The notes below the pieces were generated by a model that ran no database searches, was not told where the DNA came from, and was given only the letters and a program-made list of their open reading frames with translations. Positions 3,148 through 28,474 of a stretch of DNA of 64,000 nt are shown here, one piece after another (the first letter of the stretch is position 1; each line of letters starts with the position of its first letter). The DNA is from Chloroflexota bacterium. Lineage in GTDB: Bacteria; Chloroflexota; Anaerolineae; B4-G1; SLSP01. Made by a program: the position numbers and the translations under genes. Location of the stretch: positions 19,728-83,727 of the forward strand of contig JAIOAX010000010.1 of assembly GCA_019873645.1 (NCBI GenBank), read 5' to 3'.

Positions 3148-3177
3148 GAGATAAGCTCTGGGCAAAGGGAGTCAGGG

Positions 3178-3435: not shown

Positions 3436-3446
3436 AGAGGTGTGCT

Positions 3447-3851: not shown

Positions 3852-3953
3852 GGGTTTGACAACAGGAAATTGGTGATAAACAAATCATGATTAATATAAT
3901 CGTGATTTGTTTATCACTGTAGATTTTCTGCAAACTGAGTAAGTTAATGTTAA

Positions 3954-4808: not shown

Positions 4809-4841
4809 ACGCAAAATTTCCAAATCAAAGGAGAGAAAATC

Positions 4842-6053
4842 ATGGAAAAAATTCACGTCAAAACGCCACTGGTCGAAATGGACGGCGACGAGATGACGCG
4901 CGTCATCTGGCAGATGATCAAAGATGAGCTGTTGATGCCCTACCTGGATATGCAGACCATTTACTTTGATCTCGGCCTCAAACACCGCGACGACACGGAT
5001 GATCAGGTGACGTTCGACGCGGCGCACGCTACGTTGCAATACGGCGTCGCCGTGAAATGTGCGACGATCACCCCCAACCAGGATCGCGTGGTCGAGTACG
5101 GTCTCAAGAAGGCGTGGCCCAGCCCCAACGGCACGATCCGCGGCATCCTCGATGGCACGGTCTTCCGCGCGCCGATCATTCTCAAGAACATCCACCCGAT
5201 GGTGCGCTCCTGGCGCAAACCGATTGTCATCGGGCGTCACGCTTACGGGGATGTGTACCGCAACCAGGAGTACAAGGTGCCCGGACCGGGCAAGGCGGAA
5301 TTGGTCTTCACCCCGGCGGACGGAGGCGAGCCGGTGCGTCTCACTATCCACGATTTCAAGGGGCCGGGCGTCATCCAGGGCATCCACAACACTGAGAAGT
5401 CCATCCGCAGCTTCGCCCGCGCCTGTATCCAGTTTGCCATCAGCCAGAAAATGCCGCTGTGGTTTTCTACAAAAGACACCATCTCCAAGACCTATCACAC
5501 CTTCTTCCGCGACATCTTCCAGGAAGAAGTGAACGCGCACAAGGCCGAAATGGACGCCGCCGGCGTCGAATACTTCTATACGCTGATTGACGACGCCGTC
5601 GCGCGCGTTATCCGGCACGAAGGCGGCTTCCTGTGGGCCTGCATGAACTACGACGGTGACGTGATGAGCGACATGCTGGCGACCGGTTTCGGCAGCCTGG
5701 CGTTGATGACCTCGGTGCTGGTGAATCCTGACGGTATCATGGAATTCGAGGCGGCGCACGGCACGGTTCAGCGTCACTACTACGCCTATTTGCGGGGCGA
5801 GAAAACCTCCACCAACCCCACGGCCTCCATTTTTGCGTGGACGGGCGGCCTGGCGCGGCGCGGTGAGCTGGACGGGACGCCGGACGTCGTGGCCTTCGCC
5901 AGGACGCTGGAAGCCGCCGTCATCGAAACCATCGAAGGCGGCGAGATGACCAAAGACCTCACCCTCCTCTGTGACCCGCCCGCCGACCACTACCTCACCA
6001 CCGAAGGCTTCATCCACGCCGTCCGCGCCAAGCTGGACGCGAAACTGGCCTGA
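4842..6053 (+). CDS. icd: Isocitrate dehydrogenase (NADP-dependent type)
   Basis: [49 protein letters not shown] motifs. Confidence 0.95.
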
Positions 6054-9391: not shown

Positions 9392-9408
9392 GAGTTTGGC
9401 AGTTGAAT

Positions 9409-13481: not shown

Positions 13482-16055
13482 TCACGCGCCGCGCACTGTG
13501 GCGTTGAGTTGCTTTTGCACCAGCTTGATGATGCGCTCGCGCAATTTGGCGACGTCGTGCTCATCCAGTGGCTTGCCTGGGGATTGATATGTCAGCGCGA
13601 AGGCCAGGCTCTTGCGCCCCGCGCCGATTTGTTCGCCCCGATAGACATCGAACAACAATGCCTGCGTGACCAGCGGGCGCCCCGCCTCCAGAATGGCGCG
13701 CTGGACTGTGGCGGCCGGCAGGTTCTCATCCACGATCAGAGCCAGGTCCTCGTAGACCGGCGGATAATTGGAGATTGCCCCGATCTTTTTCTCCGCATCG
13801 GCCTGGCGCGCGGCCGCAAGCAGCGCATCCACATCCCACTCCAACAGGGCGACCGGCTGCTCCGGCAGGTCGAACGCCTCGCGCACCAGTGGATGCACTT
13901 CCCCGACGAATCCAAGTGCACGCTCGGCGACCGTCACAGCAGCGCAGCGCCCCGGATGGAACGTCGGATGTTGCCCCTTGACCCATTGCGCCTTATCGTC
14001 CAATGCCAGCGCGCTTAAGAGCGCGTCCGCGATGCCTTTAAGATCGAAGTAGTCCATCATCTCGCGATCGGTCGGCGCAAACCAGCGCTCCTGGCGTGGA
14101 CCGGTCAGTAAAATACACAGGCGGCGCGGTTCGTCTACGCCGGTATCGGCGGTCTCGGTGTTCGGCTCACGCATGGCGTAGTAGATGCGTCCGATCTCGA
14201 AAATGGCAATGCGTTCCAGGAAACGCAGATTGCTCCAGGCGGTGCGCAAGGCACCGGGCAAGAGTGTGCGCCGCATTTGTGACCGTTCCGGTGCGAGGTA
14301 GTTCTGCAATGGCACCCGCTCTCCGGGTAGCTCCGGCGTCATTTGAGGATCGGGGTGCAGTCGCGCTTCGTCTTCAGGATCAATCAGGGAATAGGTGATC
14401 ACCTCATCCAGTCCCAGCCGCGTCAGGATGTCGCGGAGGCGTTCTTCCTCTTCCAGGGCTATGTTACGGCGCAGGGGCGGCAGTTCTTCCTCAATGAGCG
14501 TGACCGGGAATCTGTCGTAGCCCCAGACACGCCCGATGTCCTCCACCAGGTCTACCGGCAAACTCACATCCAGGCGGTAAGCGGGCACGGTCACGCGCCA
14601 TACATCCTCGTGTTCCCGCTGCCCCGGCTTGGGGAGATTCTCGGTAGTCTCCACGTGGAATTCCAGGGCGGTCAGAATACGCAATTGCTCCTCCGGCGAG
14701 ATGTTCAGCCCCAGGATGCGGTCGGCGAGCGCCGGGCTGTAGTGGATAACGCGTGGCGTTGGCTTGCCGGGGTACAGGTCACCGGCGACCGTATCCACAC
14801 GGGCACCCGCGAGTTGCGCCATCAACTCGGCGGCGCGCGCCGCTGCTACCAGGGCCAGTTCCGAATCCACCCGCTTGCCGAAGCGCGAACCGGCTTCGGT
14901 GGCGAGTTTGAGCATCTGACAGGTGCGGCGGATGTTGATGAAGTTGAAACTTGCGGCTTCCAGGAGGATGTCACGGGTATCCTCTTTTACTTCACTGTCC
15001 AGCCCGCCCATCACGCCGGCGATGCCGACCGGGCCGCCGCCGTCGGTGATAAGCAACATCTCGCCATCGAAGGTACGCCGCTCGCCGTCCAGCGTGGTCA
15101 TCTGTTCACCTGCGGCGGCGCGGCGCACGATGATGGTGGGTTTATCCGTGCCCGGACGCGGGCGGATTCTGGCGTAGTCGAAGGCGTGCAGCGGCTGACC
15201 CAATTCGAGCATGACATAGTTGGTGATGTCCACCACATTGTTGATGGGGCGCATACCGGCACGTTTAAGGCGCAGTTGCATCCATAGTGGCGACGGGCCG
15301 ATGTGCACATCGCGGATCATGGTGGCGGTATAGCGGGGGCACAGATCGGGATCGGCAATTTCCAGGGCGGCGAAGTCGGGCTGGGCTACCACGCTCAAGC
15401 CGAGACGCTGTACTGCTTCGATGGGCGTGCGTTTGAGCGGCCGGCGGAAGATGGCGGCGACCTCACGGGCGATGCCGTAGACCGATTGCAGGTGTCCGAA
15501 CGGCCCCTTGATCTCGAAATCCAGGATGTAGTCGCCGAGCACTTCCACCAGCGGCACGCCGACGGGCGTATCCTCGGGCAGGTAGATGATGTCCGTTTGC
15601 TCTTCGGCGAGACCCAACTCTTTCTCCGAGCACACCATCGCCCGTGAGGGGACCCCGCGGATTTTGGTGGGCTTGAGTTTGGCCTGCACCCAGCCCTCTT
15701 TGTGCCCGTCGTAAAGCGTTGCCCCTTCCCAGGCGAAGGCCACCTTGAGGTGCAGGCCGCTCTCGCCCTTGCGCTCGTACAGGCTCGGCGCCCCGGTCAC
15801 GACGATTTCCGTCTCCGCGCCGCCGTAGTTCACCTCGGCCAGCACCAGCCGGTCGGCATCGGGATGTGGACGCACGGCGAGCACCTCGGCGGTGACAATT
15901 TTCTGCGGGTCCCAGGGCAATTCGGCCTCCGGGTAGCCGATGGCCTCGATAGCCTCGACTTCCAGCCCCGCCAGGTCCAGCCGCGCGCGCAGGTCCGCGA
16001 TGGGGATGTCTTGGATATTCACATAATCGTTTAGCCAGGATAGTGGTATTTTCAT
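13482..16055 (-). CDS. pheT: Phenylalanine--tRNA ligase beta subunit
   Basis: MKIPLSWL, HPDADRL, RPINNVVDITNYVMLELGQPLHAFD, FDVYRGEQIG..RKSLAF motifs; downstream of pheS. Confidence 0.96.
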   Translation of the reverse strand: MKIPLSWLNDYVNIQDIPIADLRARLDLAGLEVEAIEAIGYPEAELPWDPQKIVTAEVLAVRPHPDADRLVLAEVNYGGAETEIVVTGAPSLYERKGESGLHLKVAFAWEGATLYDGHKEGWVQAKLKPTKIRGVPSRAMVCSEKELGLAEEQTDIIYLPEDTPVGVPLVEVLGDYILDFEIKGPFGHLQSVYGIAREVAAIFRRPLKRTPIEAVQRLGLSVVAQPDFAALEIADPDLCPRYTATMIRDVHIGPSPLWMQLRLKRAGMRPINNVVDITNYVMLELGQPLHAFDYARIRPRPGTDKPTIIVRRAAAGEQMTTLDGERRTFDGEMLLITDGGGPVGIAGVMGGLDSEVKEDTRDILLEAASFNFINIRRTCQMLKLATEAGSRFGKRVDSELALVAAARAAELMAQLAGARVDTVAGDLYPGKPTPRVIHYSPALADRILGLNISPEEQLRILTALEFHVETTENLPKPGQREHEDVWRVTVPAYRLDVSLPVDLVEDIGRVWGYDRFPVTLIEEELPPLRRNIALEEEERLRDILTRLGLDEVITYSLIDPEDEARLHPDPQMTPELPGERVPLQNYLAPERSQMRRTLLPGALRTAWSNLRFLERIAIFEIGRIYYAMREPNTETADTGVDEPRRLCILLTGPRQERWFAPTDREMMDYFDLKGIADALLSALALDDKAQWVKGQHPTFHPGRCAAVTVAERALGFVGEVHPLVREAFDLPEQPVALLEWDVDALLAAARQADAEKKIGAISNYPPVYEDLALIVDENLPAATVQRAILEAGRPLVTQALLFDVYRGEQIGAGRKSLAFALTYQSPGKPLDEHDVAKLRERIIKLVQKQLNATVRGA

Positions 16056-16555
16056 TGTGCACCTCTTTGATAAGGGATTAGGGACTGGGGATTGGTGAAG
16101 ATGTCATCGTTGTTGGATTCCCACTCATAAATCGAGGACATTTCTCGGAGTCTGCCGCCGGGCAATTCTCCACCCCGTTTATTTCGCTTGAGATAGGCGA
16201 CATAACCATTCAGGGTACGATGGGCAACTTCTATCAACGCTACTCCTTCGTCGTAAATAGAGCGTGGGATATAGTTCAAATCAAATGCTGTGACAAGGTG
16301 GTTGTAAGTCTCTACTAGAGAGCCACGCGCGATATAGCAAAATCGTATCGTCTCCTGGTAATAAAATCGGCCATACCCTTCCGCTGTGTTTGCCATTACG
16401 CTCTTTGATGCCCGCCGTATTTGCAAACTCAGGTCCCATTTTTCATCAGCAGGCAGAGCGGGGATAATCTGCTTGTGAACAAAAATCATTATTTCTCGCG
16501 CCTTTTGCCATGCCACAAGTGTGTCTAACCCCCGGTGAATTTCTTCTGTTTCCAT
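16052..16555 (-). CDS. Four-helix-bundle protein (23S rRNA IVP/bAvd-like family)
   Basis: L.AWQKA...LP.DEKWDL..QIRRASKSVMAN.AEGYGR...F.YIARGSL.E motif. Confidence 0.88.
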   Translation of the reverse strand: METEEIHRGLDTLVAWQKAREIMIFVHKQIIPALPADEKWDLSLQIRRASKSVMANTAEGYGRFYYQETIRFCYIARGSLVETYNHLVTAFDLNYIPRSIYDEGVALIEVAHRTLNGYVAYLKRNKRGGELPGGRLREMSSIYEWESNNDDIFTNPQSLIPYQRGAQ

Positions 16556-16599
16556 CGCCTTGTCCCCCTCCCTAATTCCCAATCCCTAATCCCTGACTA

Positions 16600-17646
16600 C
16601 TAAAACTGCCGCAAAAACCGCAAGTCATTCCCGTAGAAATAACGAATGTCGCTCACGTTGTATTTCAACATCGCCGGACGTTCAACGCCGAAGCCGAAGG
16701 CGAAGCCGCTCCATTCGTCGGGATCGTAGCCGCCGTTCTTGAGTACGACGGGATGCACCATTCCCGCGCCGGCGATCTCCAACCAGCCGGTGTATTTGCA
16801 CACCCGGCAGCCTTTGCCGCCGCAGAGGATGCAGTCCATATCCATCTCGATGCTCGGTTCGGTGAAGGGGAAGTATGAGCTACGCACGCGCATCTTGTGC
16901 CCTGGCCCGTAGAACATCGCCGCAAATTGGGTCAGCGTGCCGATGAGGTCGGTCATGGTGATGCGTTTCCCGACTGCCAGCCCTTCCACTTGATAGAATT
17001 GGTGCTCGCTGCGCGCGGTGATCTGCTCATAGCGGTAGCACTTCCCGGGCAGGATCACGCGGATCGGTTCGGGATAACGCTCACGCATGGCGCGCATCTG
17101 CCCCGGCGACGTGTGGGTGCGTAAGAGCAAGCGCGTCGGACTGTTATGGATTTGCTGCATCCAGAACGTGTCCCACATATCGCGCGCCGGATGGTACTCC
17201 GGGATGTTGAGCAGGTCGAAGTTGTAACTTTCCAGCTCCACATCCGGCGCGTCATAGACCTCGAATCCCATACGCGCGAAGATGGTGTAAATCTGGCGCA
17301 GCGTTTGGGTGGTCAGGTGCAGGTGTCCCAGAGGGACCGGGCGACCCGGCAGGGTCACATCTACCGCGCCGGCTTCCAGCTCGCGAGTCAACTCGGCTTG
17401 CTTGATGGCCTCGGCGCGCGCGGCATAGGCGGCTTCGAGTGCCTGTTTGATCTCGTTGACGCGCTTGCCGAACGCCGGGCGTTCTTCCGCCGGCAGTTGC
17501 CCGACCGAGCGCACCTGCAACGTGATCGCCCCTTTGCGCCCCAATGTGTCGGCGTACCAGGCTTCAAGGGCACTCGTATCTCCGGCGGCCTCCAGCGCGG
17601 CCTGAGCTGTTTGATAGGCTTGTTCCAGTGTTGCGAATAGGTTCAT
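16600..17646 (-). CDS. pheS: Phenylalanine--tRNA ligase alpha subunit
   Basis: HPARDMWDTF, LLRTHTSPGQ, FYQVEGL, YFPFTEPS, GMVHP, GFAFGFGVER motifs. Confidence 0.97.
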   Translation of the reverse strand: MNLFATLEQAYQTAQAALEAAGDTSALEAWYADTLGRKGAITLQVRSVGQLPAEERPAFGKRVNEIKQALEAAYAARAEAIKQAELTRELEAGAVDVTLPGRPVPLGHLHLTTQTLRQIYTIFARMGFEVYDAPDVELESYNFDLLNIPEYHPARDMWDTFWMQQIHNSPTRLLLRTHTSPGQMRAMRERYPEPIRVILPGKCYRYEQITARSEHQFYQVEGLAVGKRITMTDLIGTLTQFAAMFYGPGHKMRVRSSYFPFTEPSIEMDMDCILCGGKGCRVCKYTGWLEIAGAGMVHPVVLKNGGYDPDEWSGFAFGFGVERPAMLKYNVSDIRYFYGNDLRFLRQF

Positions 17647-17757
17647 TGTCTCCTCCAGGTGAGAAATGGGTAATGAGTAACGAGTAATCGGTGGTTGGTA
17701 ATCAGGGATTGCTGTGCTGTGGCCCTCATCACTGTTTACTCATTACTCGTTACCGAT

Positions 17758-18050
17758 TCAAACAAAACGCTCCCGTCCCTTGCCAGGACGAGAGCGCGTG
17801 ACTCCCGTGGTACCACCTCGCTTGCCCTGTAGGTACAGGGCCTCTTTTTTCCACAGCCATGATGAACGTGCACCTGGCGATGGATAGCCCTCATAACGCT
17901 GGGCATGCGGAGCCGCCTACTGGGGATGACCTGTTCAGCGGTCGGCTCAGGGGCGAACTTCGGCAGGTTTTCGCTGGACGGAACTTTCAGTCTATGGTTC
18001 CATCTCCCTGGCAGTTTGCGCCTGCTTACTTTTCCCCGTCACTGCCTTTA
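17758..18050 (-). promoter_or_regulatory. T-box riboswitch (Phe specifier) with terminator
   Basis: Minus strand: AGTA, AGGGGAG and GACTGAAAG boxes; specifier GAAG-UUC (Phe); T-box AGGTGGTACCACG; terminator CGCTCTCGTCC...GGGACGGGAGCGTTTTGTTT before pheS. Confidence 0.9.
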
Positions 18051-18078
18051 TTTATTTAGGACAGACTACAGTAACCTT

Positions 18079-18106
18079 ATTATCACCAGGAGGGCCAAAT
18101 TGTCAA
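18079..18106 (-). promoter_or_regulatory. Sigma70-like promoter for the pheST leader
   Basis: TTGACA-16nt-GATAAT on the minus strand just upstream of the T-box. The -35 overlaps the response regulator stop codon. Confidence 0.55.
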
Positions 18107-18483
18107 GCCTGCGATGGCTCTCGCGGTGTTCCCATACGTTCGGCCATCATACGGAGCTGCACGAAGCTGATTGGCTTAAGTAGGATGAGATCCGCCTCGC
18201 TGTGGAGCATATCGGCCATACCGGCGTCGGCCGTGGCCACAATGACACGGGTACGTTCAAGCCGTGTATCACCACGAATTTGCGTCAGCAACTGATCGCC
18301 GTCCACATGCGGGAGGTTGAGGTCCAGGACGACCACATCGGGACAGACTTCGTTGAGCCGTCGGCGGGCGACGGCGCCATCGTAGATGATTTCGGTTTGA
18401 AAGCTGGCGGCTTTGAGCGCCTCGGAGAAAATCGTCGCCAGATCCTCATCGTCCTCGATAATCAAAGCAAATTTTTTACTCAT
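18103..18483 (-). CDS. Single-domain response regulator (CheY-like)
   Basis: ALIIEDD, VLDLNLP (phospho-Asp), TA and KP motifs. Start overlaps the kinase 3' end. Confidence 0.9.
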   Translation of the reverse strand: MSKKFALIIEDDEDLATIFSEALKAASFQTEIIYDGAVARRRLNEVCPDVVVLDLNLPHVDGDQLLTQIRGDTRLERTRVIVATADAGMADMLHSEADLILLKPISFVQLRMMAERMGTPREPSQA

Positions 18484-19873
18484 GGTGTACCTCTCCCTTA
18501 GCCTGGTTAGTGTTTTTTTGCGGTGGGACAATCGGAATCTTCACCGTGAACGTGCTGCCGGCCCCGAGTTCGCTGACGACGCTCACGCTCCCCCCCATAA
18601 GTGTAGCCAATTGCTTGACAATGGAAAGTCCCAGTCCAAAACCGGTATGTTCCCGCGTTGACGACGTATCGGCTTGCCAGAAAGGCTCGAAGATGGAGGT
18701 CTGCGCCTCTTTAGGAATGCCCGGTCCGGTATCAGTCACGTCAAAGGCCCAATAATCGGTATCAGGACAGTAAAAATGGATGCTAATGCCGCCTTTTTCG
18801 GTGAATTTCATTGCGTTATTGACGAGGTTGACGAGAATCTGATACAAGCGTCTGCGGTCGCCTTCCAAAACAGCCGGCACCGCGGGCGAGGCGTGAACCT
18901 TAAGGAACAGTTTCTTTGTTTCCACCAGTATGCGCATGGTAGATTCCAGATCGTCAACCAGGTCCTGGATGGTAAACGGCTCGATGTGCAAAGAAATCTG
19001 GCCGGCCTCGATGCGCGCCTGATCCAGCAAGTCATTGACGAGATCGAGCAGGCGTTTGTCGTTGGTGGCAATGCGCTCCAGAGCGGCGTCTTGCCTGGAG
19101 GTAATCATCCCGTAGTTGCCGCTGCGCATGATTTCGGTGAATCCCAGAATGGCGTTGAGCGGTGTGCGCAGCTCGTGGGAGACAATGGAGAGGAAGCGTG
19201 ACTTGAGCCGATCCAGCTCCTGGAGTTTTTGGTAGGCGCGGGTCAGTTGTTCGTTGGCCTGTTGTAGTTCATGGGTGCGCTGCTCTACACGTGCCTCCAG
19301 TTCCACGTTGAACGCACGCACCTCGGCCAGCGCCCCTTCCAGGCTGCGCGTCGAGAGCCAGGCGACGAAGGCGATGGTGAAGAAGCCCAGGATGGTGGGG
19401 ACGGGGGGCGCTCCTTGAGCATAATCCGGCAAAGTGAGCATAGCAATAATGCTTATTACAACACCGCATACGCCCGCCGCCACAAAACTGGCCCACGGCC
19501 GCAGGATAACGCTGGACATCAGGATGGGGATGGTGAAGAGGAACAGCGCACGGCCTTCGACGACCTGGCGGGGTGCATCGGCAAAGGCGAAGGCACCCGT
19601 TAGCAGTAACACAAACGCTGAACTAGCTATCCAGCCGGACCAACGGCGATTGATAAGAAAAATAATAAGTATGCTTGCTAGCAGCCCGAGAATAACAGGC
19701 ACGAGTCTCTTTACATCTTCTAAGATAGCTAATCCCAGAAAGAAAGCAATTATAATACCAAATAATGTGAGTAATAGTAACGAGGCTGTTCCAAACAGGA
19801 GTATATTCAGCATTTGGCGACGGCGAATGTCTTCTGGATCTGTAGTAGAAACCGCTAATAGTTCAGCTAACAT
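18476..19873 (-). CDS. Membrane-bound sensor histidine kinase (multi-TM input domain, HisKA, HATPase)
   Basis: About six hydrophobic segments in the first ~180 aa, then a coiled coil, SHELRTPLNAI, NLVNNAMKF, DTGPGI and GFGLGL. Confidence 0.93.
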   Translation of the reverse strand: MLAELLAVSTTDPEDIRRRQMLNILLFGTASLLLLTLFGIIIAFFLGLAILEDVKRLVPVILGLLASILIIFLINRRWSGWIASSAFVLLLTGAFAFADAPRQVVEGRALFLFTIPILMSSVILRPWASFVAAGVCGVVISIIAMLTLPDYAQGAPPVPTILGFFTIAFVAWLSTRSLEGALAEVRAFNVELEARVEQRTHELQQANEQLTRAYQKLQELDRLKSRFLSIVSHELRTPLNAILGFTEIMRSGNYGMITSRQDAALERIATNDKRLLDLVNDLLDQARIEAGQISLHIEPFTIQDLVDDLESTMRILVETKKLFLKVHASPAVPAVLEGDRRRLYQILVNLVNNAMKFTEKGGISIHFYCPDTDYWAFDVTDTGPGIPKEAQTSIFEPFWQADTSSTREHTGFGLGLSIVKQLATLMGGSVSVVSELGAGSTFTVKIPIVPPQKNTNQAKGEVHHE

Positions 19874-21352
19874 TTATAATATACTTTCTGCTAAAGTGAG
19901 AGCGCTTAAAATTGCAGATCGAACGACTAATTCTGGACAATATAGACATTTACCGATCCAGAGCGGGGGATAGGGAAGATCCAAATGGTGTATTAACCAC
20001 TCTTGTCCTCGTTGAAGTACACTCTTATCAATGTAATTTTGGTGAGACCGCGACCAAAGTGTCAGAGCTTGCATACAATAAGCTGTTTCCTCAGCCGTGG
20101 GTGAATAATATCCCCAGGCCCCATCAGTGTCTTGGGTTGATAGAATCCAATCAATTGCCGAATTTGCCATTACAGAATCATAATTCATACATATTATTGC
20201 GGCATGGCTGGTTGTATAATATGGGGAAACATGCCACTTATCAAACCAAAAAGCTTCTTTTATTCTGGATTTGTTTAAAAAGAGCAATAGTTTCTTTACT
20301 GTCTCATGGGATGTCTTAAAATTAGCTCGTTGCAATGCGCCTAGAATGTGAATATTTGCACTAATAGAGGGGTTTGATTCTAGATCAAAGCAGCGGAAGT
20401 AAAAGGGCTTTTCATAAGAAAGGAGTGCCTCGGAGTCTACACAACGACCATAGTAGCTTAATACATCATAGACGATGCTAGTCTCGTCTCCATCCTTTGG
20501 AATGTAGTTTTGCGCAAAACCTGCTCCTATACCAGGCATCCAGCTTTGTTCTAGAAAGTCGAGATGAGTTTGGCAGAGATCTATTACTTCATTGTCTAGA
20601 AGATTTATGTTCCACTTTAAGTTCCATAATATCCATGCCGGTTCAAAAACATCAAATGGATATACATTAGGCGCGGTACCTGTGGAAGCGACTCTGTGCA
20701 GGTAATTCAAAGCTGCCAGATCACCCCGACGCACATACAAAGCATAGTAGGCCGTAGCCGAGGGGCTGTAACTGATAGAACCATCGTATTCTTGTAGATT
20801 ATCTATATCCAGTAACTTTTTTCCATCACTGCCGGCCATTTCTGCAGAAAATGCCATCGTTACAGACCGATTGATCATGCCGTTAGGCAATAAAGCTAAC
20901 TTGGCCGACCTGAGTGGGGCTAAGGATTTTAACACCTCTGTATTATCGTGATGGATGGCCCCCAAAGCCCGCGCCTCGTGAAGTAAAGTGGGGACAAGTA
21001 GCTCGAAGCCAATGGTTGCACCTGCCGGATCCTCTTGCAAATGCGGGGTCAGCATTTCCAGGGCGGCTTCTGCTGCCTCCAGGCGTTCGCGGTCGCTGCG
21101 TAGACCGCGCCTGGCCAGGGCGTTGATGGCCGCCAGGGTGCAAATCACGCGATCATGGTAGTAAAGCGGTTGTGCCGCGCCCCACGAACCGTCCGGCAAT
21201 TGATGCTCCCGCAACCATTGCAACGCCAGTTCTCCAATCGGTTCGCCGATCTCTACCAGACGCGCTATCCAGGCGGTATCGTAGGCCGTGGGCATCATTT
21301 TCCCCGGTCCGGCCTCTTGAAGGAGTTTGACCCATTCTGCGTGTAAATCCAT
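19874..21352 (-). CDS. Class II diterpene cyclase (copalyl/halimadienyl/kolavenyl-PP synthase type; Rv3377c/Haur_2145-like)
   Basis: TAYDTAWIAR, QW motifs QLPDGSWG and QDTDGAWG, D.....TLA, IGFEL, SPSATA, DGDET (DxDD-type acid motif), DKWHVSPYY, EETAY, LWIGK.LY.P. Confidence 0.9.
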   Translation of the reverse strand: MDLHAEWVKLLQEAGPGKMMPTAYDTAWIARLVEIGEPIGELALQWLREHQLPDGSWGAAQPLYYHDRVICTLAAINALARRGLRSDRERLEAAEAALEMLTPHLQEDPAGATIGFELLVPTLLHEARALGAIHHDNTEVLKSLAPLRSAKLALLPNGMINRSVTMAFSAEMAGSDGKKLLDIDNLQEYDGSISYSPSATAYYALYVRRGDLAALNYLHRVASTGTAPNVYPFDVFEPAWILWNLKWNINLLDNEVIDLCQTHLDFLEQSWMPGIGAGFAQNYIPKDGDETSIVYDVLSYYGRCVDSEALLSYEKPFYFRCFDLESNPSISANIHILGALQRANFKTSHETVKKLLLFLNKSRIKEAFWFDKWHVSPYYTTSHAAIICMNYDSVMANSAIDWILSTQDTDGAWGYYSPTAEETAYCMQALTLWSRSHQNYIDKSVLQRGQEWLIHHLDLPYPPLWIGKCLYCPELVVRSAILSALTLAESIL

Positions 21353-21411
21353 AGCTAATCAGGTTTTCCTGGACTTAAAAATATTTTCGGGAGGACTTGT
21401 TTTTGTATTTG

Positions 21412-21457
21412 ACCGGCTGAAGCCGGTGTGCACATGTGCGCACCGGCTTCAGCCGGT
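21412..21457. repeat. Nested palindrome upstream of the cyclase gene
   Basis: ACCGGCTGAAGCCGGTG-TGCACATGTGCG-CACCGGCTTCAGCCGGT. Confidence 0.7.
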
Positions 21458-21708
21458 TTTTTCCCCAGACACTCTCAATTTCACATTCATCCATGCCCAC
21501 AAAGGTCTAGTACACGGGGGCGGAAATGACTTCCCCGTTAAATTCTTCTCCCATCGCTCAAAGGGGAACGCCAGTTCCCCGTGCGGTCTTCGACGCGCCC
21601 ATTATGTCCGCCGCATAGCATCAGTGCTCGACATAACACCTCAAAACCGCAGATCTGACGATCCGCTTCAAGCCTCGCTAACCAACATGGAATTTTTGCC
21701 ATGATGGA

Positions 21709-22629
21709 CTAGACTACATTTGGAGACTGAATCTGAGCCTTAGGATACCAGACGCCTTTATACATTGTCCCGATACCCAGAATGTTTTCTGCATTCGTTT
21801 GGTAAAAGGCGCGCATTGCGGCCCAATCCGCCGGGGTCATTTCACTGTAATCGCTTTCTTCTTTGGGACGGGCGTACAGGTGGTCAAAAAGGATGGTGCG
21901 CAATTGTCGCGTATCCAGATATAACGAAGGGGCGACCGTGAAGTACAAGTCTTCGTTGCCCGTCGAAACCAGCGGCATATCGAAAGCGGTGAACTTATCA
22001 AACCCGATGAAAAAATCCACCGGCGTGACATACTCGCCATAGTAAGCTTCAACAATCTCGCGTTTGTTCGGCAAGCGACCATACGTCTGGTGAAACTGTG
22101 CGCCGATGGCCGCCACGGTTTCCGCCGCATCGTGAGCACACACGCCGAAGAAAAGCCGGTAGCGATTGTGTGAAGCCGTCCGTTGTTCAACGGCTTGAAA
22201 ATCGCGGATAAAACCGGCGTAAGGCGTTCCTTCAAAGTAACGCCGGTAATCACCGTACACGCGCACCCGCACATCGTAAGCCGCATAGAAATCCAGGAAG
22301 TCTTGCCCCCGCGCGAACCAGGATAACCCATCGCGGATCAAGGCGTCGTACTCCTCTCCGCGTTCTAAAATATCCGGGCCGAAAACCGGCGTCAGCAAGG
22401 TATCTATGCCGTGGTCAAAAAACAATTTATAGACTTCGACATGGCAACGCCCGGCAATATCCAGATAGGCTCTGACAAAATTTTCGGCAACCGCTTCAGG
22501 ATATTCCAGGATTAACCACCGCCGCGTTCCGTTGATCGGGAACACGCACACCTTCGGTCCGGCGGCGCGCACGATGCGCGCCACCTCCTCGGTGGGCAAG
22601 TTCAAAAAGGTCTCCAGGTCCATCTTCAT
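21709..22629 (-). CDS. Rv3378c/Haur_2146-like diterpenyl transferase/synthase (cis-prenyltransferase-like fold)
   Basis: FLNLPTEEVARIVRAAGPKVCVFPINGTRRW closely resembles recalled Rv3378c FLDLP..VAEIVR..GPKV.VFPFDGTRRW. Also FDHGIDT, RG..Y, VRVYGDY, LFFGV, YYGEYV, DLYF and LR.IL.DH. Start overlaps the GT87 stop (ATGA); alternative ATG at 22623. Confidence 0.85.
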   Translation of the reverse strand: MKMDLETFLNLPTEEVARIVRAAGPKVCVFPINGTRRWLILEYPEAVAENFVRAYLDIAGRCHVEVYKLFFDHGIDTLLTPVFGPDILERGEEYDALIRDGLSWFARGQDFLDFYAAYDVRVRVYGDYRRYFEGTPYAGFIRDFQAVEQRTASHNRYRLFFGVCAHDAAETVAAIGAQFHQTYGRLPNKREIVEAYYGEYVTPVDFFIGFDKFTAFDMPLVSTGNEDLYFTVAPSLYLDTRQLRTILFDHLYARPKEESDYSEMTPADWAAMRAFYQTNAENILGIGTMYKGVWYPKAQIQSPNVV

Positions 22630-23987
22630 GCTCCTGTGAGATGCCGGGCCGGCGCAGCGCGCCATAGACGCGCCAGCAAAACGGCGTACAGCATCAAAAT
22701 GGTTGCCATAATCAAAGGGAAATAAATGGCCGGATCGGTAGCGACGTAAGGGCCGGGCAAGATAATGTCCATTCCGCCGAAGATAAGGCTGCCTACCCGC
22801 CAGGGGTCCAGCAAGGCATAGGGAAGAAATGCCAGGTGTATCCACATTTTTCCTACTTGTGAAGATGTTGTCCCTAACAAATAAGGATAAAGCGCGACCC
22901 CCAGACACAATTCCCACACCATATCCAGCCAGATAAAAGCACCTAAGTACAGAATAAATGCGAAATCAAGGCCCAGTTGTGGCTTCTGGTCGCCACGTTG
23001 ATTGACCGGATAAAGAAGATGGCGCAAACAAACCACTCCCAGGGGAATCAAAAGCAGTATTTTAACCACGGTCGCCAGGTGTAATGTCTGCTGCGATACA
23101 CCGAGTCGGTAAACGACGATTTGTTTGATAGAATGATTATATCCCAAAAATGCCTTGTCCGGCCCGCGCCAGGGAAAATCTCGACTGAGTCGCCCCAGGA
23201 AAGCCACATAATCGCGGTATTGCCCCCACCCGTAAGCCGGCCCGACGACCAGAATGGTCATGCCGGTGATGACAATATAAACAAGCACCGTCAGCGCCAG
23301 CAATTGAAAGAAAAAACGCCGTCGTCCGAGCAAGAGAGGCACGGCCGCGGCGAAAGTCCAATGGGGTTTGATCTGGAGGATGATCGAGAGCCACAAGAGC
23401 GACCATCCCAGGTGTTCTGTCAGAATGGCTTCGATCAACAATGTGGCCAATAAGGCCATGATGATATAGATATTCAGGTAGCCCAGATCCGTCCAAAAAG
23501 ATGAAAAGAGCAACCACACCGGCAACACCCAGGCTAACATCCTAAGTGCGCGAGGAAGATTGAGGCGTTTGAAAATTCGTCCCCACATGATGTACATAAT
23601 CCCATAGGCGATGATGTGCAACAGAGTATGGACTACCGACGCGCCTACAGGGGATAGCCACGAAAAAGGTACGAAGGCCAGAGCGAAGGAAGGGGCATAA
23701 GGATAGTGATCTTCAAGCCGCGCCAGTGAGCCTTTCAGATACAAGTCTTGCCTGGCGCGCAGATGTTTGGCCGCATTGAGATAAATCTGCAGATCGGCCG
23801 GCACCACCGGCCCTTCCACATCTACCCATGCCGGCACACCCCCCAGGATTTTGGCTTCGGGGAACAGCATCATCGCCAAAACCACCCCCTGCACCACCAA
23901 CCGCAGCAAGGTATACACCGCCGCCGCGGTCAGCAACACGCGGTAGGTTCTGGAGCTGCGCCAGAGTTGCTTGATCTCGGAACCCAT
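22626..23987 (-). CDS. GT87/DUF2029-like membrane glycosyltransferase (GT-C fold)
   Basis: Polytopic. ADLQIYLNAA...LY...YPYAP.FAL.F.P, N, IKP and NHSI patterns are typical of GT87. Confidence 0.72.
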   Translation of the reverse strand: MGSEIKQLWRSSRTYRVLLTAAAVYTLLRLVVQGVVLAMMLFPEAKILGGVPAWVDVEGPVVPADLQIYLNAAKHLRARQDLYLKGSLARLEDHYPYAPSFALAFVPFSWLSPVGASVVHTLLHIIAYGIMYIMWGRIFKRLNLPRALRMLAWVLPVWLLFSSFWTDLGYLNIYIIMALLATLLIEAILTEHLGWSLLWLSIILQIKPHWTFAAAVPLLLGRRRFFFQLLALTVLVYIVITGMTILVVGPAYGWGQYRDYVAFLGRLSRDFPWRGPDKAFLGYNHSIKQIVVYRLGVSQQTLHLATVVKILLLIPLGVVCLRHLLYPVNQRGDQKPQLGLDFAFILYLGAFIWLDMVWELCLGVALYPYLLGTTSSQVGKMWIHLAFLPYALLDPWRVGSLIFGGMDIILPGPYVATDPAIYFPLIMATILMLYAVLLARLWRAAPARHLTGA

Positions 23988-23990
23988 AGC

Positions 23991-24533
23991 TTACATCAAC
24001 AACAGGTAACTGTAATCAATCGCGCTGATGAGCAGCGTCATAAACAAGGCCAGCAAGGCGGCGTTCAGCAAGGCCGTGCGCAACGGCTTGTCCTTCTGCT
24101 GCCGTAACGCACGCATTAACAAGGCGCCCACGAGGCCCAACGCCAGGCCGTGCAGGACTACGCCGATCCACGGGGCATTGCCCGCGGCTGCGCCTTGCGC
24201 CAGTGCCAACCCCACGCCCGTCAGCCCGCCGAAAAGGGCATCTATCTTCCGGTTGCTCCAGCGGCTTTCGGTGGCCAGGTAGGCGGCAAAGAGCACCTGC
24301 AAAATTCCAAAGGTCACAATGTTCACCACCGTGACCGCCCACGGCTCGTGGTAGCCGCTGATGAGCGGTTCGGTGTAGCGGATGAGCAACGAGCCTGCCA
24401 CGGCGCTGACGAGGCTGCACAGTACCGCGTCACGACGTCGGCCTCTGGCCCACAGCCATACTGCCGCCACGAATAAGATCAGCACGGGCGCGTTCTGGAC
24501 GAATTCCCAGAAGATGGCGTTGATGAATATCAT
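23991..24533 (-). CDS. Hypothetical multi-pass membrane protein
   Basis: 180 aa with ~6 hydrophobic segments, tightly packed in the operon. Confidence 0.75.
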   Translation of the reverse strand: MIFINAIFWEFVQNAPVLILFVAAVWLWARGRRRDAVLCSLVSAVAGSLLIRYTEPLISGYHEPWAVTVVNIVTFGILQVLFAAYLATESRWSNRKIDALFGGLTGVGLALAQGAAAGNAPWIGVVLHGLALGLVGALLMRALRQQKDKPLRTALLNAALLALFMTLLISAIDYSYLLLM

Positions 24534-24535
24534 CT

Positions 24536-26863
24536 CTATTCTCCCCGCAGGACCTGGACGATGGGAATCCGCGCTGCCCGCTTCCCCGGCAGATAGCTCC
24601 CCGCGACGCTGACGATGACCATCAGCACAGGGATCGCTGCAACGTATAAGCCATTCAGCGTTGTCTCCACTGCGCCGAATCCGTAAGTTTTCGAAAGCGC
24701 GGCCAATACGCTGTTAGTGAATCCCCATCCTAACGGCAACCCTGTCAAGGCCGCTAAAAATCCCAGGAAACCGGCCGCTGTGTTGACCATCAGCACAACC
24801 TGTCGGGGCGTGAAGCCGAGCGTCTTGAGCACACCGATCACGCGCAGCTTCTCCTGGACAGCTAACAGCGAGGTATTAAACACACTAACCAATGCTATAC
24901 CTATTAGAATACCGGATAATGCAAAAAGTGCAAGTTGCAGGTAGACCACGACGCCAGGAATGGCCTGCCCGGCGAAGGTTAGATTCAGGTCGGATTCCGG
25001 TTTGGGTTCGATATAACGCTTTAACAGCGCCGTGTCGGTATGCGGCGCGAGCTTCAGGTAGTAGACGGCCGGGCTTTCCCCTGGCAACAATCGCGCCAGC
25101 GTGGAGAAATTCGCCATGGCCATCTGCCCGGTGTTGACCGGCTCTGTATACGCGCCGACGATGCGCCAGGTGACGGGGCGGTTGCGGCGGCCATCCACAA
25201 TGACCGTCAACTCGTCGCCGACACGCAAGCCCAACCAATCTAACAATCCCTGCCCGGCCATCACCTCGTCGGTGTCTGGACGGATCAGCCGTCCTTCCAG
25301 GATTCTGAAGGGGAAGGAGGAAAGCTCGCCATCCACCGCGCGCACTTGAAAGCTCTCTCCCGTCGGCGTTTCGACGTCCACGCGGTATTCGCCGTAGAAG
25401 GCTGTCACGCCGGGCGCACGTTCCAGGAGATGGCGCACTTTGCTATCTGGCGTTATGCCGCGCGTGACGATGGCATCGTAGGCGATGCCCAACAGGTGCG
25501 GGTTGGCCTTGTAGGTTTCCAGCGTCTCGTTCAACGTCAACCCGAAGACGATGCCGACGACGCCGATCAACAGGTTCAGGCCGGTGCTCAACGAACGGAA
25601 CGGCCGGGCAAAGACATCGCTTAAGCCCAACACAAAGGGGATCGAGAAGCCCAGGCGTGCCGCCAGCCGCGGCAGCCAGAATTCCTTCTTGGCCGGGGCC
25701 TCCGCGCCGGTGGCGATGGCTTTGACGATGTTGGCTTGCGCCGCCCGCCGCGCCGAGCGCCACGCAGCCGCTGCGATGATCGTCGGGATGATGCCCAGCA
25801 CCAGCATAACGATCAGGGGGTTGAACGGCGGGCGGAAAGTGGTGCTCAACGCCGAGGCGACATTCCGCAGGGGCAGGGGCGAGAGCAGCAAACCGAGCAC
25901 CAGACCGATGGGGCAGCCGATCAGCCCCAAGACCAGGTATTGCCCCAGGTAGAGCCAGAGGATTTGCGCTTTGGTGAAACCTACGGCCTTGAGGATGCCC
26001 ACTTGCCGGAATTGCGACAGGACAAACGCGCTGATGCCGCTGACGATAACCAGCACCGTCGCCAGGATTGCGAACAGGCTGAAGGCGCCCAACAGGATGA
26101 AGTTGAGCCGCGCGCCGAAGTTGGCCGAACGCTTCACATCCCGCCAATCTGTGTGATTGCGCACGGCGTCGGGCTGGAGCAGTGCCTCGATCTGCGTCAG
26201 AACCTCGGTCACGGCTTCGGGGTCCGCCAGGCGCAGCCCCAGCGACCATTCCCAGGCGGTGGAATCGGGATACAGCTCCCGAAAGAGGCTTTGACTGACG
26301 TAGAGATAGGGTGGTTGGGTGTTGCGATAGGTGTCCCAGGTGGGGTTGTAGGCCAGTCCGATGACCGGCAAGCTGACTTTTTTGCCGTCTTGCCGGGTGA
26401 CGCCGATGCTGTCGCCGACTGCCAGCCCGTACAGGTCCGCCAGGTCGCGGCTGGCAAGCACTTCAGCTTGCCGGGGAAGCAGGTAGCGGCCCGCTTGCAC
26501 CAGCAGGCGGTTCACCCGCGGCGGTTGCAACGGCGTGTCGCGGATGCTCACCCAGACCCGCGTATCGCCGATTGACACCCGTGCTGTGACACTGTACTGG
26601 AGGCCGGTGCTGTCTGTCACTTCCGGCAGCGCTTCGAGGCGGGCGATGTCCCGGCGGGTGACTTTGGCGCGGTCGAAATACAACCACAGATGCGCGCCAT
26701 TCAGCGTGGCAAAGGAACGGTCGTAGGGCGCGCTGAGGTTGAGCAGTGTTGCCAGCGCCAGGGTCAGCAACATCGTCGCCGAGACAATCGTCATCAGTGT
26801 CAGGAGCGAGATGAACGGCCTTCCGACGACATCAGCTTTGAGTTTCTGCCAGATGGCTAACAT
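24536..26863 (-). CDS. ABC exporter permease, FtsX/MacB type (two repeats)
   Basis: Two GILKAVGFT / GVLKTLGFT FtsX motifs, each with a large extracytoplasmic domain. Confidence 0.9.
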   Translation of the reverse strand: MLAIWQKLKADVVGRPFISLLTLMTIVSATMLLTLALATLLNLSAPYDRSFATLNGAHLWLYFDRAKVTRRDIARLEALPEVTDSTGLQYSVTARVSIGDTRVWVSIRDTPLQPPRVNRLLVQAGRYLLPRQAEVLASRDLADLYGLAVGDSIGVTRQDGKKVSLPVIGLAYNPTWDTYRNTQPPYLYVSQSLFRELYPDSTAWEWSLGLRLADPEAVTEVLTQIEALLQPDAVRNHTDWRDVKRSANFGARLNFILLGAFSLFAILATVLVIVSGISAFVLSQFRQVGILKAVGFTKAQILWLYLGQYLVLGLIGCPIGLVLGLLLSPLPLRNVASALSTTFRPPFNPLIVMLVLGIIPTIIAAAAWRSARRAAQANIVKAIATGAEAPAKKEFWLPRLAARLGFSIPFVLGLSDVFARPFRSLSTGLNLLIGVVGIVFGLTLNETLETYKANPHLLGIAYDAIVTRGITPDSKVRHLLERAPGVTAFYGEYRVDVETPTGESFQVRAVDGELSSFPFRILEGRLIRPDTDEVMAGQGLLDWLGLRVGDELTVIVDGRRNRPVTWRIVGAYTEPVNTGQMAMANFSTLARLLPGESPAVYYLKLAPHTDTALLKRYIEPKPESDLNLTFAGQAIPGVVVYLQLALFALSGILIGIALVSVFNTSLLAVQEKLRVIGVLKTLGFTPRQVVLMVNTAAGFLGFLAALTGLPLGWGFTNSVLAALSKTYGFGAVETTLNGLYVAAIPVLMVIVSVAGSYLPGKRAARIPIVQVLRGE

Positions 26864-26866
26864 AGT

Positions 26867-26943
26867 GAATCAAGAATCAGCGAATGAGCGAATCAGCGAA
26901 TGAGCGAATCAGCGAATGAGCGAATCCCCCAATCCCCAATCCC
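26867..26943. repeat. Octamer tandem repeat (AGCGAATG/AGCGAATC) plus AATCCCC heptamers
   Basis: GAATCAGCGAATGAGCGAATCAGCGAATGAGCGAATC... Confidence 0.8.
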
Positions 26944-27677
26944 TACGTTTCGGTCAGGGTGATCATGAATTGGGCGATGCGCTGCACGTCCACGCCCGGC
27001 ATTTCTTCGACCAGCCGCCCATCGCGGATGAAGATGACGTGCTTGGCTTGCGCGGCGGCCGACGCGTCGTGCGTCACCATCAAAATTGTCTGCCCCTGCG
27101 CGTTACATTCACGCAAGATGTGCAGCACTTCCTGCCCGCTTTTGCTGTCCAGGTTACCCGTAGGTTCGTCGGCCAGCAGGAGCGTGGGCTGGTTGATCAG
27201 CGCCCGTGCGATGGCAACCCGCTGCTGTTGTCCGCCCGAAAGTTCCCACGGATGTTTGCGCGCTTGATCCAGAATCCCCAGGCGTTCCATCAACGCATTG
27301 GCCCGCTGCCGCACGGCTTTGCGCTCTCGTCCGCTCTGTAACAGCGCCGGCAACTCGATGTTGGCCTGGACCGTCAGGTTGTCAATCAGATTGAAGAACT
27401 GGAAGATAAAGCCGATGTGCGTGCGGCGGAATTTTGCCAGCGCCGTTTCGTTCATGGCGCTCAGGACGGCGTCCCGGACTTCGATCCGTCCGGCGGAGGG
27501 GCGATCCAGCCCCCCCAGCAGGTGCAGCAGGGTGGATTTTCCACTGCCCGACGGTCCCATCACCGCGACAAAATCACCTTCGGCCAGCTCCAGCGAGACA
27601 CCGCGCAAGGCGGTGAAGGCGACCGCGCCGGTTTTGTAGATTTTCTCGACGTTGACAAGCCTGACCAGCGCCGTCAT
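26943..27677 (-). CDS. ABC transporter ATP-binding protein (LolD/MacB type)
   Basis: GPSGSGKST, FIFQFFNL, LSGGQQQRVAIARAL, LLADEPTGNLDS. Confidence 0.93.
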   Translation of the reverse strand: MTALVRLVNVEKIYKTGAVAFTALRGVSLELAEGDFVAVMGPSGSGKSTLLHLLGGLDRPSAGRIEVRDAVLSAMNETALAKFRRTHIGFIFQFFNLIDNLTVQANIELPALLQSGRERKAVRQRANALMERLGILDQARKHPWELSGGQQQRVAIARALINQPTLLLADEPTGNLDSKSGQEVLHILRECNAQGQTILMVTHDASAAAQAKHVIFIRDGRLVEEMPGVDVQRIAQFMITLTET

Positions 27678-28474
27678 ACCTGCGTATAGCACGTGCGGGT
27701 GAAATAAGTCTTGAAGCCGGCGATGCGCAGGAAACGCTCGAAGGGCGCGCCGGCCGTCGTCTGCAACAGGGCGCGCCGGCAGCCCCAGGCATAAGCGTCG
27801 GCATAGACCTTGGCCGTCAGCCCGCTGAGCACTTTCAGCCCGCGCAGTCTGGAGATAATGCCTGCGCTTCCCACAATTGCCAGGTCTTCATGGCAGAGCA
27901 GAGTGCACACCCCTAGCGGTTGCCCGTCGAACGTCGCCACGTAGTGAAACATCCCCGGCAGACCGATGGAAGGCGTAAGCACCTCGGCCAGCGCTTCGGC
28001 GTACTCTTCCGGCATCCCAAAGGCTTTCAGGAAGACCTGTGCAAAGGTCGGCGCTTCGCTTTTGTCAATACTATGCACTTCCACGCGCGCGGGTACGGCC
28101 GATTGCACCAGGTCTTCCGGGCGTTCCAGGACCATCCAGGCTTCCTGTTCCTTTTGGCGGATGAAGCCCGCCTGCTCCAATTGGCGGGGCAAGTCTTCCG
28201 GCGTGCATGCCGGTGAAAGAAAGACCGTCGGTGGCAGTTCGCGTGAGGTGAAGTGTTCCATGATCTCGGCAATCAAATCCTGGGCCGTCTCGCGTGTGGC
28301 CCGCAACAGACAGGCGTGATTGACATCCGGTGTGGGGAAAATCTGACTGCTGGTGATGATCATATCATCCCGCAGGATCAACTCCACGCCCGGCGTTGCG
28401 GCAACCATCGGTTGCATCGCCACATAGTTTTGCCGTTCGAGAGCCGCCATTGCTTCAACCGTCACTTTTGTCAT
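27674..28474 (-). CDS. GNAT-fold acetyltransferase-like protein
   Basis: C-terminal GNAT-like pattern (YVA..DGQPLG..TL...LAIV...RG...LQT......GF). The acetyl-CoA motif is only partly conserved. Confidence 0.55.
   Translation of the reverse strand: MTKVTVEAMAALERQNYVAMQPMVAATPGVELILRDDMIITSSQIFPTPDVNHACLLRATRETAQDLIAEIMEHFTSRELPPTVFLSPACTPEDLPRQLEQAGFIRQKEQEAWMVLERPEDLVQSAVPARVEVHSIDKSEAPTFAQVFLKAFGMPEEYAEALAEVLTPSIGLPGMFHYVATFDGQPLGVCTLLCHEDLAIVGSAGIISRLRGLKVLSGLTAKVYADAYAWGCRRALLQTTAGAPFERFLRIAGFKTYFTRTCYTQV

Follow-up and report, generated by a model that had tools for sequence, protein, structure and literature searches.

An AT-rich block spanning a diterpene cyclase gene and the adjoining sensor kinase gene is probably the core of a recombining allelic cassette in Anaerolineae

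In the staphylococcal agr hypervariable region (3' agrB - agrD - 5' agrC) and in Bacillus comQXP, segments of a synthesis gene and of a sensor gene are polymorphic, and hypervariable cassettes uniting synthase and sensor are a genomic hallmark of private cell-cell signalling as known from these peptide systems. In the Chloroflexota, Haur_2145/2146/2147 of Herpetosiphon aurantiacus form the O-methylkolavelool cluster, for which we know of no report of a linked kinase, exporter or hypervariable block. A passage of PMC9814783 identifies Haur_2145 as a kolavenyl diphosphate synthase and gives 44% as the share of clusters with Rv3377c homologues that also hold an Rv3378c equivalent; part of a preprint (bioRxiv 10.1101/2025.02.07.637177) places many Chloroflexota sequences among the bacterial diterpene cyclases. 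Here we analysed a stretch of 64,000 nucleotides (nt) from a Chloroflexota bacterium of the class Anaerolineae (contig JAIOAX010000010.1, positions 19,728 to 83,727; referred to as the window), in which an AT-rich block crosses the boundary between the gene for an Rv3377c-like class II diterpene cyclase and the gene for a sensor histidine kinase. As in agr and comQXP, a contiguous hypervariable segment crosses a gene boundary and joins part of a synthesis enzyme to the membrane sensor part of the adjacent kinase; the catalytic core of the kinase is conserved, as are the far ends, and lineages exchange the segment by recombination. There is good support at this locus for a recombining hypervariable cassette, and we consider it likely that the block is the AT-rich core of an allelic cassette within a conserved Anaerolineae cluster that would make, export and sense a diterpenoid.

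A reading of the window from its sequence only (hereafter the sequence-only reading) had described an abrupt fall of the GC content inside two intact open reading frames (ORFs). Its hand-counted values were exact (0.333 at 19741-19800, 0.317 at 20221-20280, 0.717 at 19321-19380 and 0.750 at 21061-21120), and the fall was confirmed by the profiles of GC and of GC at third codon positions (GC3) and by segmentation. GC was 0.413 at 19640-20960 and 39-41% over the block overall, against a mean of 0.586 for the source genome, a 4.9-Mb metagenome-assembled genome (GC 58.6%, contamination 5.7%). Only 0.05% of 24,064 genome windows of 1300 bp (standard deviation 0.038) were as low, and ten merged regions in the 4.9 Mb had a GC of at most 0.43. 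For cyclase codons ~160-492 together with kinase codons 1-80, GC3 was 0.27-0.47; it was host-like, as had been proposed, in the cyclase N-terminus (0.57-0.77, codons 1-150) and the kinase core (0.57-0.93, codons 91-340). The drop was strongest at third codon positions (overall 0.30-0.40 in the block and 0.6-0.85 in the flanks), with GC at first and second positions also lower in the block. Maximum-likelihood segmentation with two breakpoints placed a sharp boundary on the kinase side at 19649 (2-lnL range 19600-19659; kinase codon 75) and a diffuse one on the cyclase side at 20669 (range 20656-20966). When 300 stretches of 4.5 kb were drawn at random from this genome, 11 reached the log-likelihood ratio of 40.9; such heterogeneity is therefore uncommon and not unique, and what is extreme about the block is its GC level rather than its contrast with the surroundings. 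In the cyclase the block takes in approximately the C-terminal 65-70% (first estimated at three-quarters), and in the kinase the initial ~75 amino acids (aa; first estimated at ~90), which comprise the N-terminal tail and transmembrane helices TM1 and TM2 of six predicted helices. Both ORFs are intact, and the cyclase stop codon TAA directly abuts the kinase ATG. Elsewhere in the genome, nine other regions were similarly low (<=0.43, lowest 0.345; e.g. C65:3401-5701, C3:244401-246501 and C17:63001-64901), and GC was 0.46-0.48 at 3001-5000 of the window.

With a metagenome-assembled genome of 5.7% contamination as the source, a chimera of the assembly at one or both junctions was considered, and we regard it as extremely improbable. 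In a second, independent assembly (run X1, which may be the source sample) a single contig of 4125 nt and depth 17 covers 17452-21576 with 0 differences and bridges both junctions at even depth. The same mosaic composition was seen in at least 12 independently assembled loci, and both intact ORFs align over their full length with homologues of the Protein Data Bank (PDB). The sequencing runs that contain window sequence are described in their records as metagenomes of hot springs; no RNA run is listed among them, which does not bear on expression. Proteins most closely related to those of the genome are assigned by their sources to Anaerolineae or Chloroflexota. A run of a different study (X2) contained contigs of a close relative at 3.4-4x, with flank pieces 96-100% identical and no cover at about 19437-21305; cover was patchy elsewhere as well, no contig joined across the stretch, and no inference was drawn from it.

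The genealogy of the block was evaluated by comparison with other loci and genomes, designated below by L- and G-numbers, respectively, with WIN for the window's own locus. The nearest relative, L029, is identical to L002 of genome G001 over the compared cyclase segment and is syntenic from the exporter to pheS. Nucleotide identity between WIN and L029 was 0.61-0.71 in all eight windows of 20834-19641, compared with 0.80-0.83 immediately beside the block at 21284-20835, 0.80-0.87 at 19640-19191 and 0.75-0.92 in the flanks in general. The identity breakpoint at 19641 matches the kinase-side GC boundary, and that at 20834 falls within the diffuse cyclase-side range; breakpoints had been expected near 19600 and 21000. 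A second divergent stretch against the same relative lies at 18127-19190 (identity 0.61-0.77; kinase catalytic core and response regulator) and has an ordinary GC of 0.50-0.59. In an exploratory quick tree the kinase core and regulator of the nearest relative grouped with L016/L017 (SH-aLRT, the approximate likelihood-ratio branch support, 87), which suggests a separate recombination event for this stretch.

The clearest case of exchange was found within a sister species of the window's, between contigs L030 and G002:C14, which are 95-100% identical over most of 6.4 kb. Upstream, 40 of 43 windows of 150 nt were at least 0.95 identical; identity then fell to 0.62-0.81 over 14 windows that begin in the final third of the Rv3378c-like gene, include the whole cyclase and end at kinase aa ~100, and returned to 0.93-0.99 downstream. 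Synonymous divergence (dS) in this pair (L005/L030) was 0.05-0.36 in the flanks and 1.6-2.8 in the cassette, a jump that is not explicable by changed protein constraint. Correspondingly, the tree path between L030 and G002 was 0.024 for the outer segments and 0.43 for the block, and the L030 block grouped with L003/L004/L002 (support 96), i.e. with cassettes of two other species. A control pair from a distant clade in which the GC3 dip is absent (L042/L043; one control) showed a uniform identity of 0.83-0.97 without a valley.

Trees of block and flanks were incongruent in the wider set, as the sequence-only reading had anticipated for segments inside and outside the block. In protein windows, L002 gave way to L005 as the nearest relative of WIN from cyclase aa ~181 to kinase aa ~60. 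The flank tree joined WIN and L002 (support 96/96) and WIN+L005 was rejected (p 7e-14); for the block alignment WIN+L002 was rejected by the approximately unbiased (AU) test (p-AU 0.005), as was L005+L021 (p 2.5e-5). Among 10 close loci (45 pairs), distances for cyclase 181-492 and kinase 20-80 were strongly correlated (rho 0.87, reached by 1 of 5000 permutations); the kinase N-terminus correlated neither with the cyclase N-terminus (rho -0.14) nor with the core of its own kinase (0.15), and the cyclase C-terminal part was likewise uncorrelated with the remaining half of either gene. The observations named by the sequence-only reading as refuting (uniform identity across the junctions with congruent trees, or chimeric junctions) were thus not made. 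Identity of the PheS protein was 88-93% to all 10 congeners found, too flat to tell which segment is vertical. Rate heterogeneity without a separate genealogy, in which a weakly constrained cyclase C-terminus and the first two kinase helices evolve fast and drift towards AT, would fit the long block branches of WIN and L002 and the correlation of amino acid identity with GC3 (rho 0.60 over 59 windows), which is also seen outside the block (0.40, n = 45). We judge it improbable, since dS itself jumps in the L005/L030 pair, nearest-neighbour relations switch rather than distances alone changing, the ratio of block to flank distance differs widely among pairs (~0.85 to ~18), and well-conserved windows of the block are still AT-rich.

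The GC3 dip is shared with relatives of the window's locus. In 53 distinct loci, block GC3 was at least 0.15 below that of the own flanks in 13 of 20 with a cyclase at least 58% identical and in none of 33 with a cyclase below 58%. The WIN dip (0.28) was the largest of all, and the dip was also present in hosts of lower GC (L014: block GC3 0.25, flank 0.41, adjacent 20 kb GC 0.48). Synonymous divergence between alleles is saturated (dS at least 1 or not computable), so that a foreign composition should have decayed; all alleles nevertheless keep a block GC3 of 0.25-0.43. Polarised third-position changes in the block of four independent pairs, a rough parsimony count, were 206 from A/T to G/C (W>S) and 160 in the opposite direction (S>W), near equilibrium plus parsimony bias, where relaxation towards flank GC3 would predict a ratio of ~3.3:1. 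Low GC is thus a long-standing positional property of every allele in the clade of the WIN type, and the composition of the block appears to be near equilibrium.

These data bear on a recent horizontal import, in which a low-GC fragment would have replaced parts of two resident genes. The sharp GC3 step at kinase codon ~75-90 and the size of the WIN dip would agree with such an event, which we consider very unlikely: a dip at the corresponding position is found in 12 further distinct loci, which come from other species and metagenomes, and the polarised changes give no sign of fast amelioration. A search of 5.8 billion proteins revealed no closer donor, the best match being 73% over cyclase aa 151-492 among the best 120 of 2158 homologues, which is no closer than the match to the rest of the protein. 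Neither mobility genes nor a tRNA were found at the block boundaries, which fall inside ORFs, and the block occupies an orthologous site in relatives, unlike a genomic island.

Several observations weigh against the interpretation as a recombining allelic core, or narrow it. The clean case at conspecific level is one pair, from a sister species and not from the window's own; its replaced piece includes the cyclase N-terminus of higher GC, so that its breakpoints do not follow the GC boundaries. Together with the old, clade-wide dip and a best donor at 73%, this contradicts the view of the sequence-only reading that low GC marks a swap into this genome, and leaves standing its proposal of a recombined cassette. 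The long block branches of WIN (0.33) and L002 (0.30) both lie inside one five-member clade, and part of the WIN signal could therefore be acceleration rather than exchange. Clades for the AU tests were named after quick trees and identity profiles had been seen, which makes those p-values optimistic; the 58% cyclase-identity threshold was likewise chosen after seeing the data. The dN/dS values (ratio of nonsynonymous to synonymous divergence; Nei-Gojobori) and the polarised counts (parsimony) rest on near-saturated, compositionally skewed sites, and genome G017, the source of four loci, is probably a mixed bin. The likeness to agr and com that had been proposed holds for the hypervariable segment spanning both genes; co-variation of its two parts is explicable by physical linkage alone, and a pairing of signal and receptor is further opposed by the cyclase motifs FWFDKWH, SPYY, WGYY, AEETAYC and PLWIGKCLYC, which are kept in all close alleles, and by L016/L017, which in a codon-based comparison are 47% identical over kinase aa 1-60 with cyclases 92-98% identical. 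Finally, block windows with an amino acid identity of at least 0.8 still have a GC3 of 0.42-0.47, and poorly conserved windows outside the block have 0.47-0.55. AT-richness is therefore a regional property; low conservation as its sole cause is ruled out by the AT-rich conserved windows, and, low conservation alone failing to explain the dip, the cause proposed below remains a conjecture, our preferred guess.

As we interpret the locus, the core of the recombining cassette would unite two parts: from the cyclase, the catalytic Asp motif with the greater part of the beta domain, and from the kinase, the N-terminal tail with TM1 and TM2. The two would be inherited as one unit with a genealogy unlike that of the flanking gene halves. 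Homologous recombination would move alleles from lineage to lineage, crossing over where the flanks are conserved: on one side the cyclase N-terminal third or the Rv3378c-like gene, on the other the kinase motifs FLINRxWSGW or DEPRQVVEGRxLFLFTIPILM. Such crossovers would leave deeply diverged alleles in otherwise similar backgrounds. A core too diverged to recombine internally may be subject to weaker GC-restoring forces, either less biased gene conversion, which we prefer, or less effective selection, and could become AT-rich in this way. Selection on the specificity of the sensor, of the product or of both may maintain the diversity of alleles.

The cyclase aligned with PDB 6vpt over aa 12-489 and, with a weaker E value, with the ent-copalyl diphosphate synthase 5bp8 (1.6e-41). 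In place of the DxDD motif it carries D287-G-D289-E-T (aa 287-291, 20494-20480), and DKWH (aa 371-374, 20242-20231) lies, like this motif, inside the block, as the sequence-only reading had stated; LYC follows at aa 470-472. Passages of PMC9814783 name 6VPT as Rv3377c, describe the central Asp of DxDD-type motifs as the general acid, and propose W380 and Y479 as the base that leads to the halimane product. D289 was invariant in 16 of 16 aligned sequences, and W373 (DKW373H) and Y471 (LY471C), which align with W380 and Y479 of Rv3377c, were also invariant. The residues around this Asp, the first and fourth motif positions included, vary between allele groups (DGDE, GGDE, DSDV, DADG, DSDG, DGDD and DADV). 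Conservation of the active-site motifs argues for one cyclisation chemistry. Homologues are annotated in their sources as 'halimadienyl-diphosphate synthase' or 'type B diterpene cyclase', and halimadienyl/tuberculosinyl diphosphate is the putative product as named solely by these annotations.

The kinase is of the HisKA type of two-component kinases, with HisKA and HATPase_c domains and a receiver gene that overlaps its 3' end. Ahead of HisKA and HATPase_c, hydropathy predicts six TM helices (aa ~24-175) that are joined by short loops and leave no room for an extracytoplasmic domain. In the alignment the hypervariable part is TM1-loop-TM2 (aa 27-72), and conserved stretches are the N-terminal (V/I)PS.DP.D.RRR.LLNILL, the loop FLINRxWSGW and DEPRQVVEGRxLFLFTIPILM. 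Within allele types dN/dS of the sensor N-terminus was 0.12-0.24, indicating that it is constrained and does not drift freely. The sensor domain matches no named family; a MASE-like assignment by language-model look-up serves as a lead only. Kinases of the distant clade have the same six-helix N-terminus with an extra insert of ~110 aa before HisKA (L042 8468-10204). Physical contact could also account for the shape of the cassette, if the cyclase beta domain docked on the N-terminal tail, TM1 and TM2 of the kinase and the interfaces were co-inherited. The co-inherited unit spans exactly these parts, and the abutting stop and start codons suggest coupled translation; with the kinase part changed on its own in L016/L017, we think this explanation quite improbable as well.

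What selection on specificity might mean for the organism can be stated in two forms. In one, the alleles would act as private signal-receptor pairs under frequency-dependent selection, with TM1-TM2 tuning recognition and the cyclase alleles yielding either different terpenoids or one product that is read differently. The evidence for the cassette as a whole (identity valley, sister-species pair, block trees and co-varying distances) is compatible with such a function, as are six helices with short loops that suit a membrane-soluble ligand, a conserved exporter upstream, residues around the invariant catalytic Asp that differ between allele groups, an optional gene for a tailoring enzyme of the B12-radical-S-adenosylmethionine (radical-SAM) type in five loci from four distinct sources, and the within-type dN/dS of the sensor N-terminus. 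Adjacency by itself produces co-variation and co-inheritance, however, the active-site motifs are conserved in all close alleles, L016/L017 changed kinase aa 1-60 with a nearly constant cyclase, and discrete allele classes within a species were found in one pair only; we thus rate private pairing as possible and on the whole unlikely. A response of the kinase to the lipid product of the cluster fits the adjacency, the stop/start abutment, the membrane-only sensor and the exporter. The wider form, which we put forward tentatively and hold to be rather unlikely, is a terpenoid counterpart of the peptide pherotype systems in Anaerolineae. Rv3377c-like, Rv3378c-like and GT87 enzymes would synthesise a diterpenoid (possibly a nucleoside or glycoside), a MacB-type pump would export it and the six-helix kinase would sense it at the membrane, the cassette defining private types as an old balanced polymorphism shuffled between species. 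An architecture familiar from peptide signalling is met here in a phylum that is abundant and largely uncultured, built from a diterpene cyclase and a membrane sensor of no named family; it is a concrete candidate, open to testing, for allele-specific signalling by lipids or terpenoids. Whatever its role in signalling, the locus is a clean natural case of a composition anomaly inside intact genes that persists over saturated synonymous divergence, and it bears on what maintains bacterial GC content.

The genes concerned belong to a cluster of ~9.6 kb (18103-27692), all on the minus strand and followed after the regulator by a T-box leader and pheS (Table 1). The regulator likely starts at an internal ATG near 18483, overlapping the kinase stop. 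The order GT87, Rv3378c-like gene, cyclase, kinase, regulator is found throughout the genus and the family, and again in another family of the same order. In every locus with both matches on the contig, in close and distant clades alike, the cyclase gene is immediately succeeded by the kinase gene, and the exporter is syntenic in all loci whose contig extends far enough upstream. The whole cluster is syntenic in the close clade and, except for the small membrane protein, in the distant clade.

Table 1. Features of the cluster and of the AT-rich core (window coordinates).
Feature	Position	Strand	Support
ABC transporter ATPase	26943..27692	-	Pfam ABC_tran 5.5e-35; synteny
MacB/FtsX-type ABC permease, 775 aa	24536..26863	-	Pfam FtsX and MacB_PCD; syntenic in close and distant clades
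Membrane protein without family, 180 aa	23991..24533	-	Syntenic in L029-L036
GT87-family membrane glycosyltransferase, 453 aa	22626..23987	-	Pfam GT87 1.4e-07; syntenic in relatives
Rv3378c-like prenyl (tuberculosinyl) transferase / diterpene synthase homologue, 305 aa	21709..22626	-	PDB 3wqk/3wqn, E 2e-74
Intergenic spacer between Rv3378c-like gene and cyclase	21353..21708	.	Dispersed repeat and palindrome
Class II (type B) diterpene cyclase, Rv3377c-like, 492 aa	19874..21352	-	PDB 6vpt, E 7.5e-130; Pfam SQHop_cyclase_C
Sensor histidine kinase, 465 aa	18476..19873	-	Pfam HisKA 3.5e-18, HATPase_c 2.7e-30
Response regulator, receiver domain only	18103..18531	-	Pfam Response_reg 1.5e-16
AT-rich hypervariable core	19649..20834	-	Cyclase aa ~173-492 and kinase aa 1-75; GC/GC3 and identity drop against L029

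The Rv3378c-like protein matched the PDB entries titled 'Diterpene synthase | RV3378C' over aa 5-295 and gave no match to a Pfam or NCBIfam model. Adjacent homologues of Rv3378c and Rv3377c are widespread in Anaerolineae, with 2158 homologues of the cyclase (E<=0.001) and the Rv3378c-like gene present in 57 metagenome loci (loci L002-L098). Co-linear homologues of both enzymes of the Mycobacterium tuberculosis terpene-nucleoside pathway stand against a 2024 statement, in section 12 of PMC11476799, that orthologues were not found outside mycobacteria; such enzyme pairs had already been noted in general terms by genome mining in a passage of PMC9814783.

Between the Rv3378c-like gene and the cyclase, five loci carry a gene for a B12-binding radical-SAM protein (531 aa): L027 (G011, 8116-9711), L026, L082, L047 and L077. 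They represent four distinct sources, with G011 counted twice, and come from both the close and the distant clades. The gene is not in the window's cluster, the best match in its own genome being 33% identical and on another contig; at this position the window has instead a spacer of 360 nt with a dispersed repeat. The repeat (~200 nt) has 65 matches in the same genome, of which ~15 reach a length of 100 nt or more with an identity of 69-89%. The spacer further holds a palindrome of 46 nt with a perfect centre (inverted repeat, 21412-21457) that recurs in relatives, ~310 nt of it are an insertion relative to L029, and its read depth in X1 shows a ~20-fold spike. An Rfam scan of 16000-25000 returned the T-box leader and a sub-threshold match of a miRNA model on the palindrome, and nothing inside the block. 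The T-box leader (17781-18051, minus strand) scored 97 bits, more than the gathering threshold, and precedes pheS; a gene for a 23S-rRNA-intervening-sequence protein (16052-16582) is located between pheS and pheT.

Different versions of the cluster were observed in congeners. L016 and L017 (G003:C52 and G009:C26), at the same chromosomal site beside pheS (89-93% identical), carry a version that shares only 50-51% identity with the window's in the Rv3378c-like gene and 51-54% in the kinase; it seems that here the complete cluster was exchanged while its chromosomal position stayed fixed. Bin G017 contained four copies (L003, L012, L013 and L014; L024-L026 are also listed) on contigs of GC 0.41-0.52 with 9% contamination, and is probably a mixture of populations. 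L012 and L003 combine a near kinase core and regulator with distant biosynthetic genes.

Compared with described systems, the Anaerolineae cassette differs from agr and comQXP in its enzyme, a class II diterpene cyclase, so that any signal would be terpenoid; with the cyclase stop abutting the kinase start there is no ORF between them, and no ORF for a peptide signal was found inside the variable segment. Its sensor is an unnamed six-helix domain, the segment is markedly AT-rich relative to the host, and deeply diverged alleles within one species are represented by one conspecific-level pair (L030 and G002). Searches of the open-access full-text literature returned no publication in which a diterpene cyclase is connected with a hypervariable kinase cassette or with two-component systems of Anaerolineae. 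As in AT-rich accessory or horizontally acquired islands, GC is well under the host mean and the history differs from that of neighbouring DNA; unlike in such islands, the boundaries lie inside two intact genes lacking mobility genes, at an orthologous place across the clade, which is not that of an insertion. The cluster resembles that of Herpetosiphon aurantiacus, by description and not by sequence, in the pairing of a class II diterpene cyclase with an Rv3378c-type enzyme in the Chloroflexota. It resembles the M. tuberculosis Rv3377c-Rv3378c (1-tuberculosinyladenosine) locus in its adjacent homologues of both enzymes and in equivalents of the catalytic Asp, W380 and Y479; atypical GC is also reported for that gene pair in section 12 of PMC11476799. 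Unlike in M. tuberculosis, the pair is part of a cluster that also encodes GT87, an ABC exporter and its own two-component system, the Rv3378c-like gene precedes the cyclase, and the fourth motif residue is E, not the T of Rv3377c.

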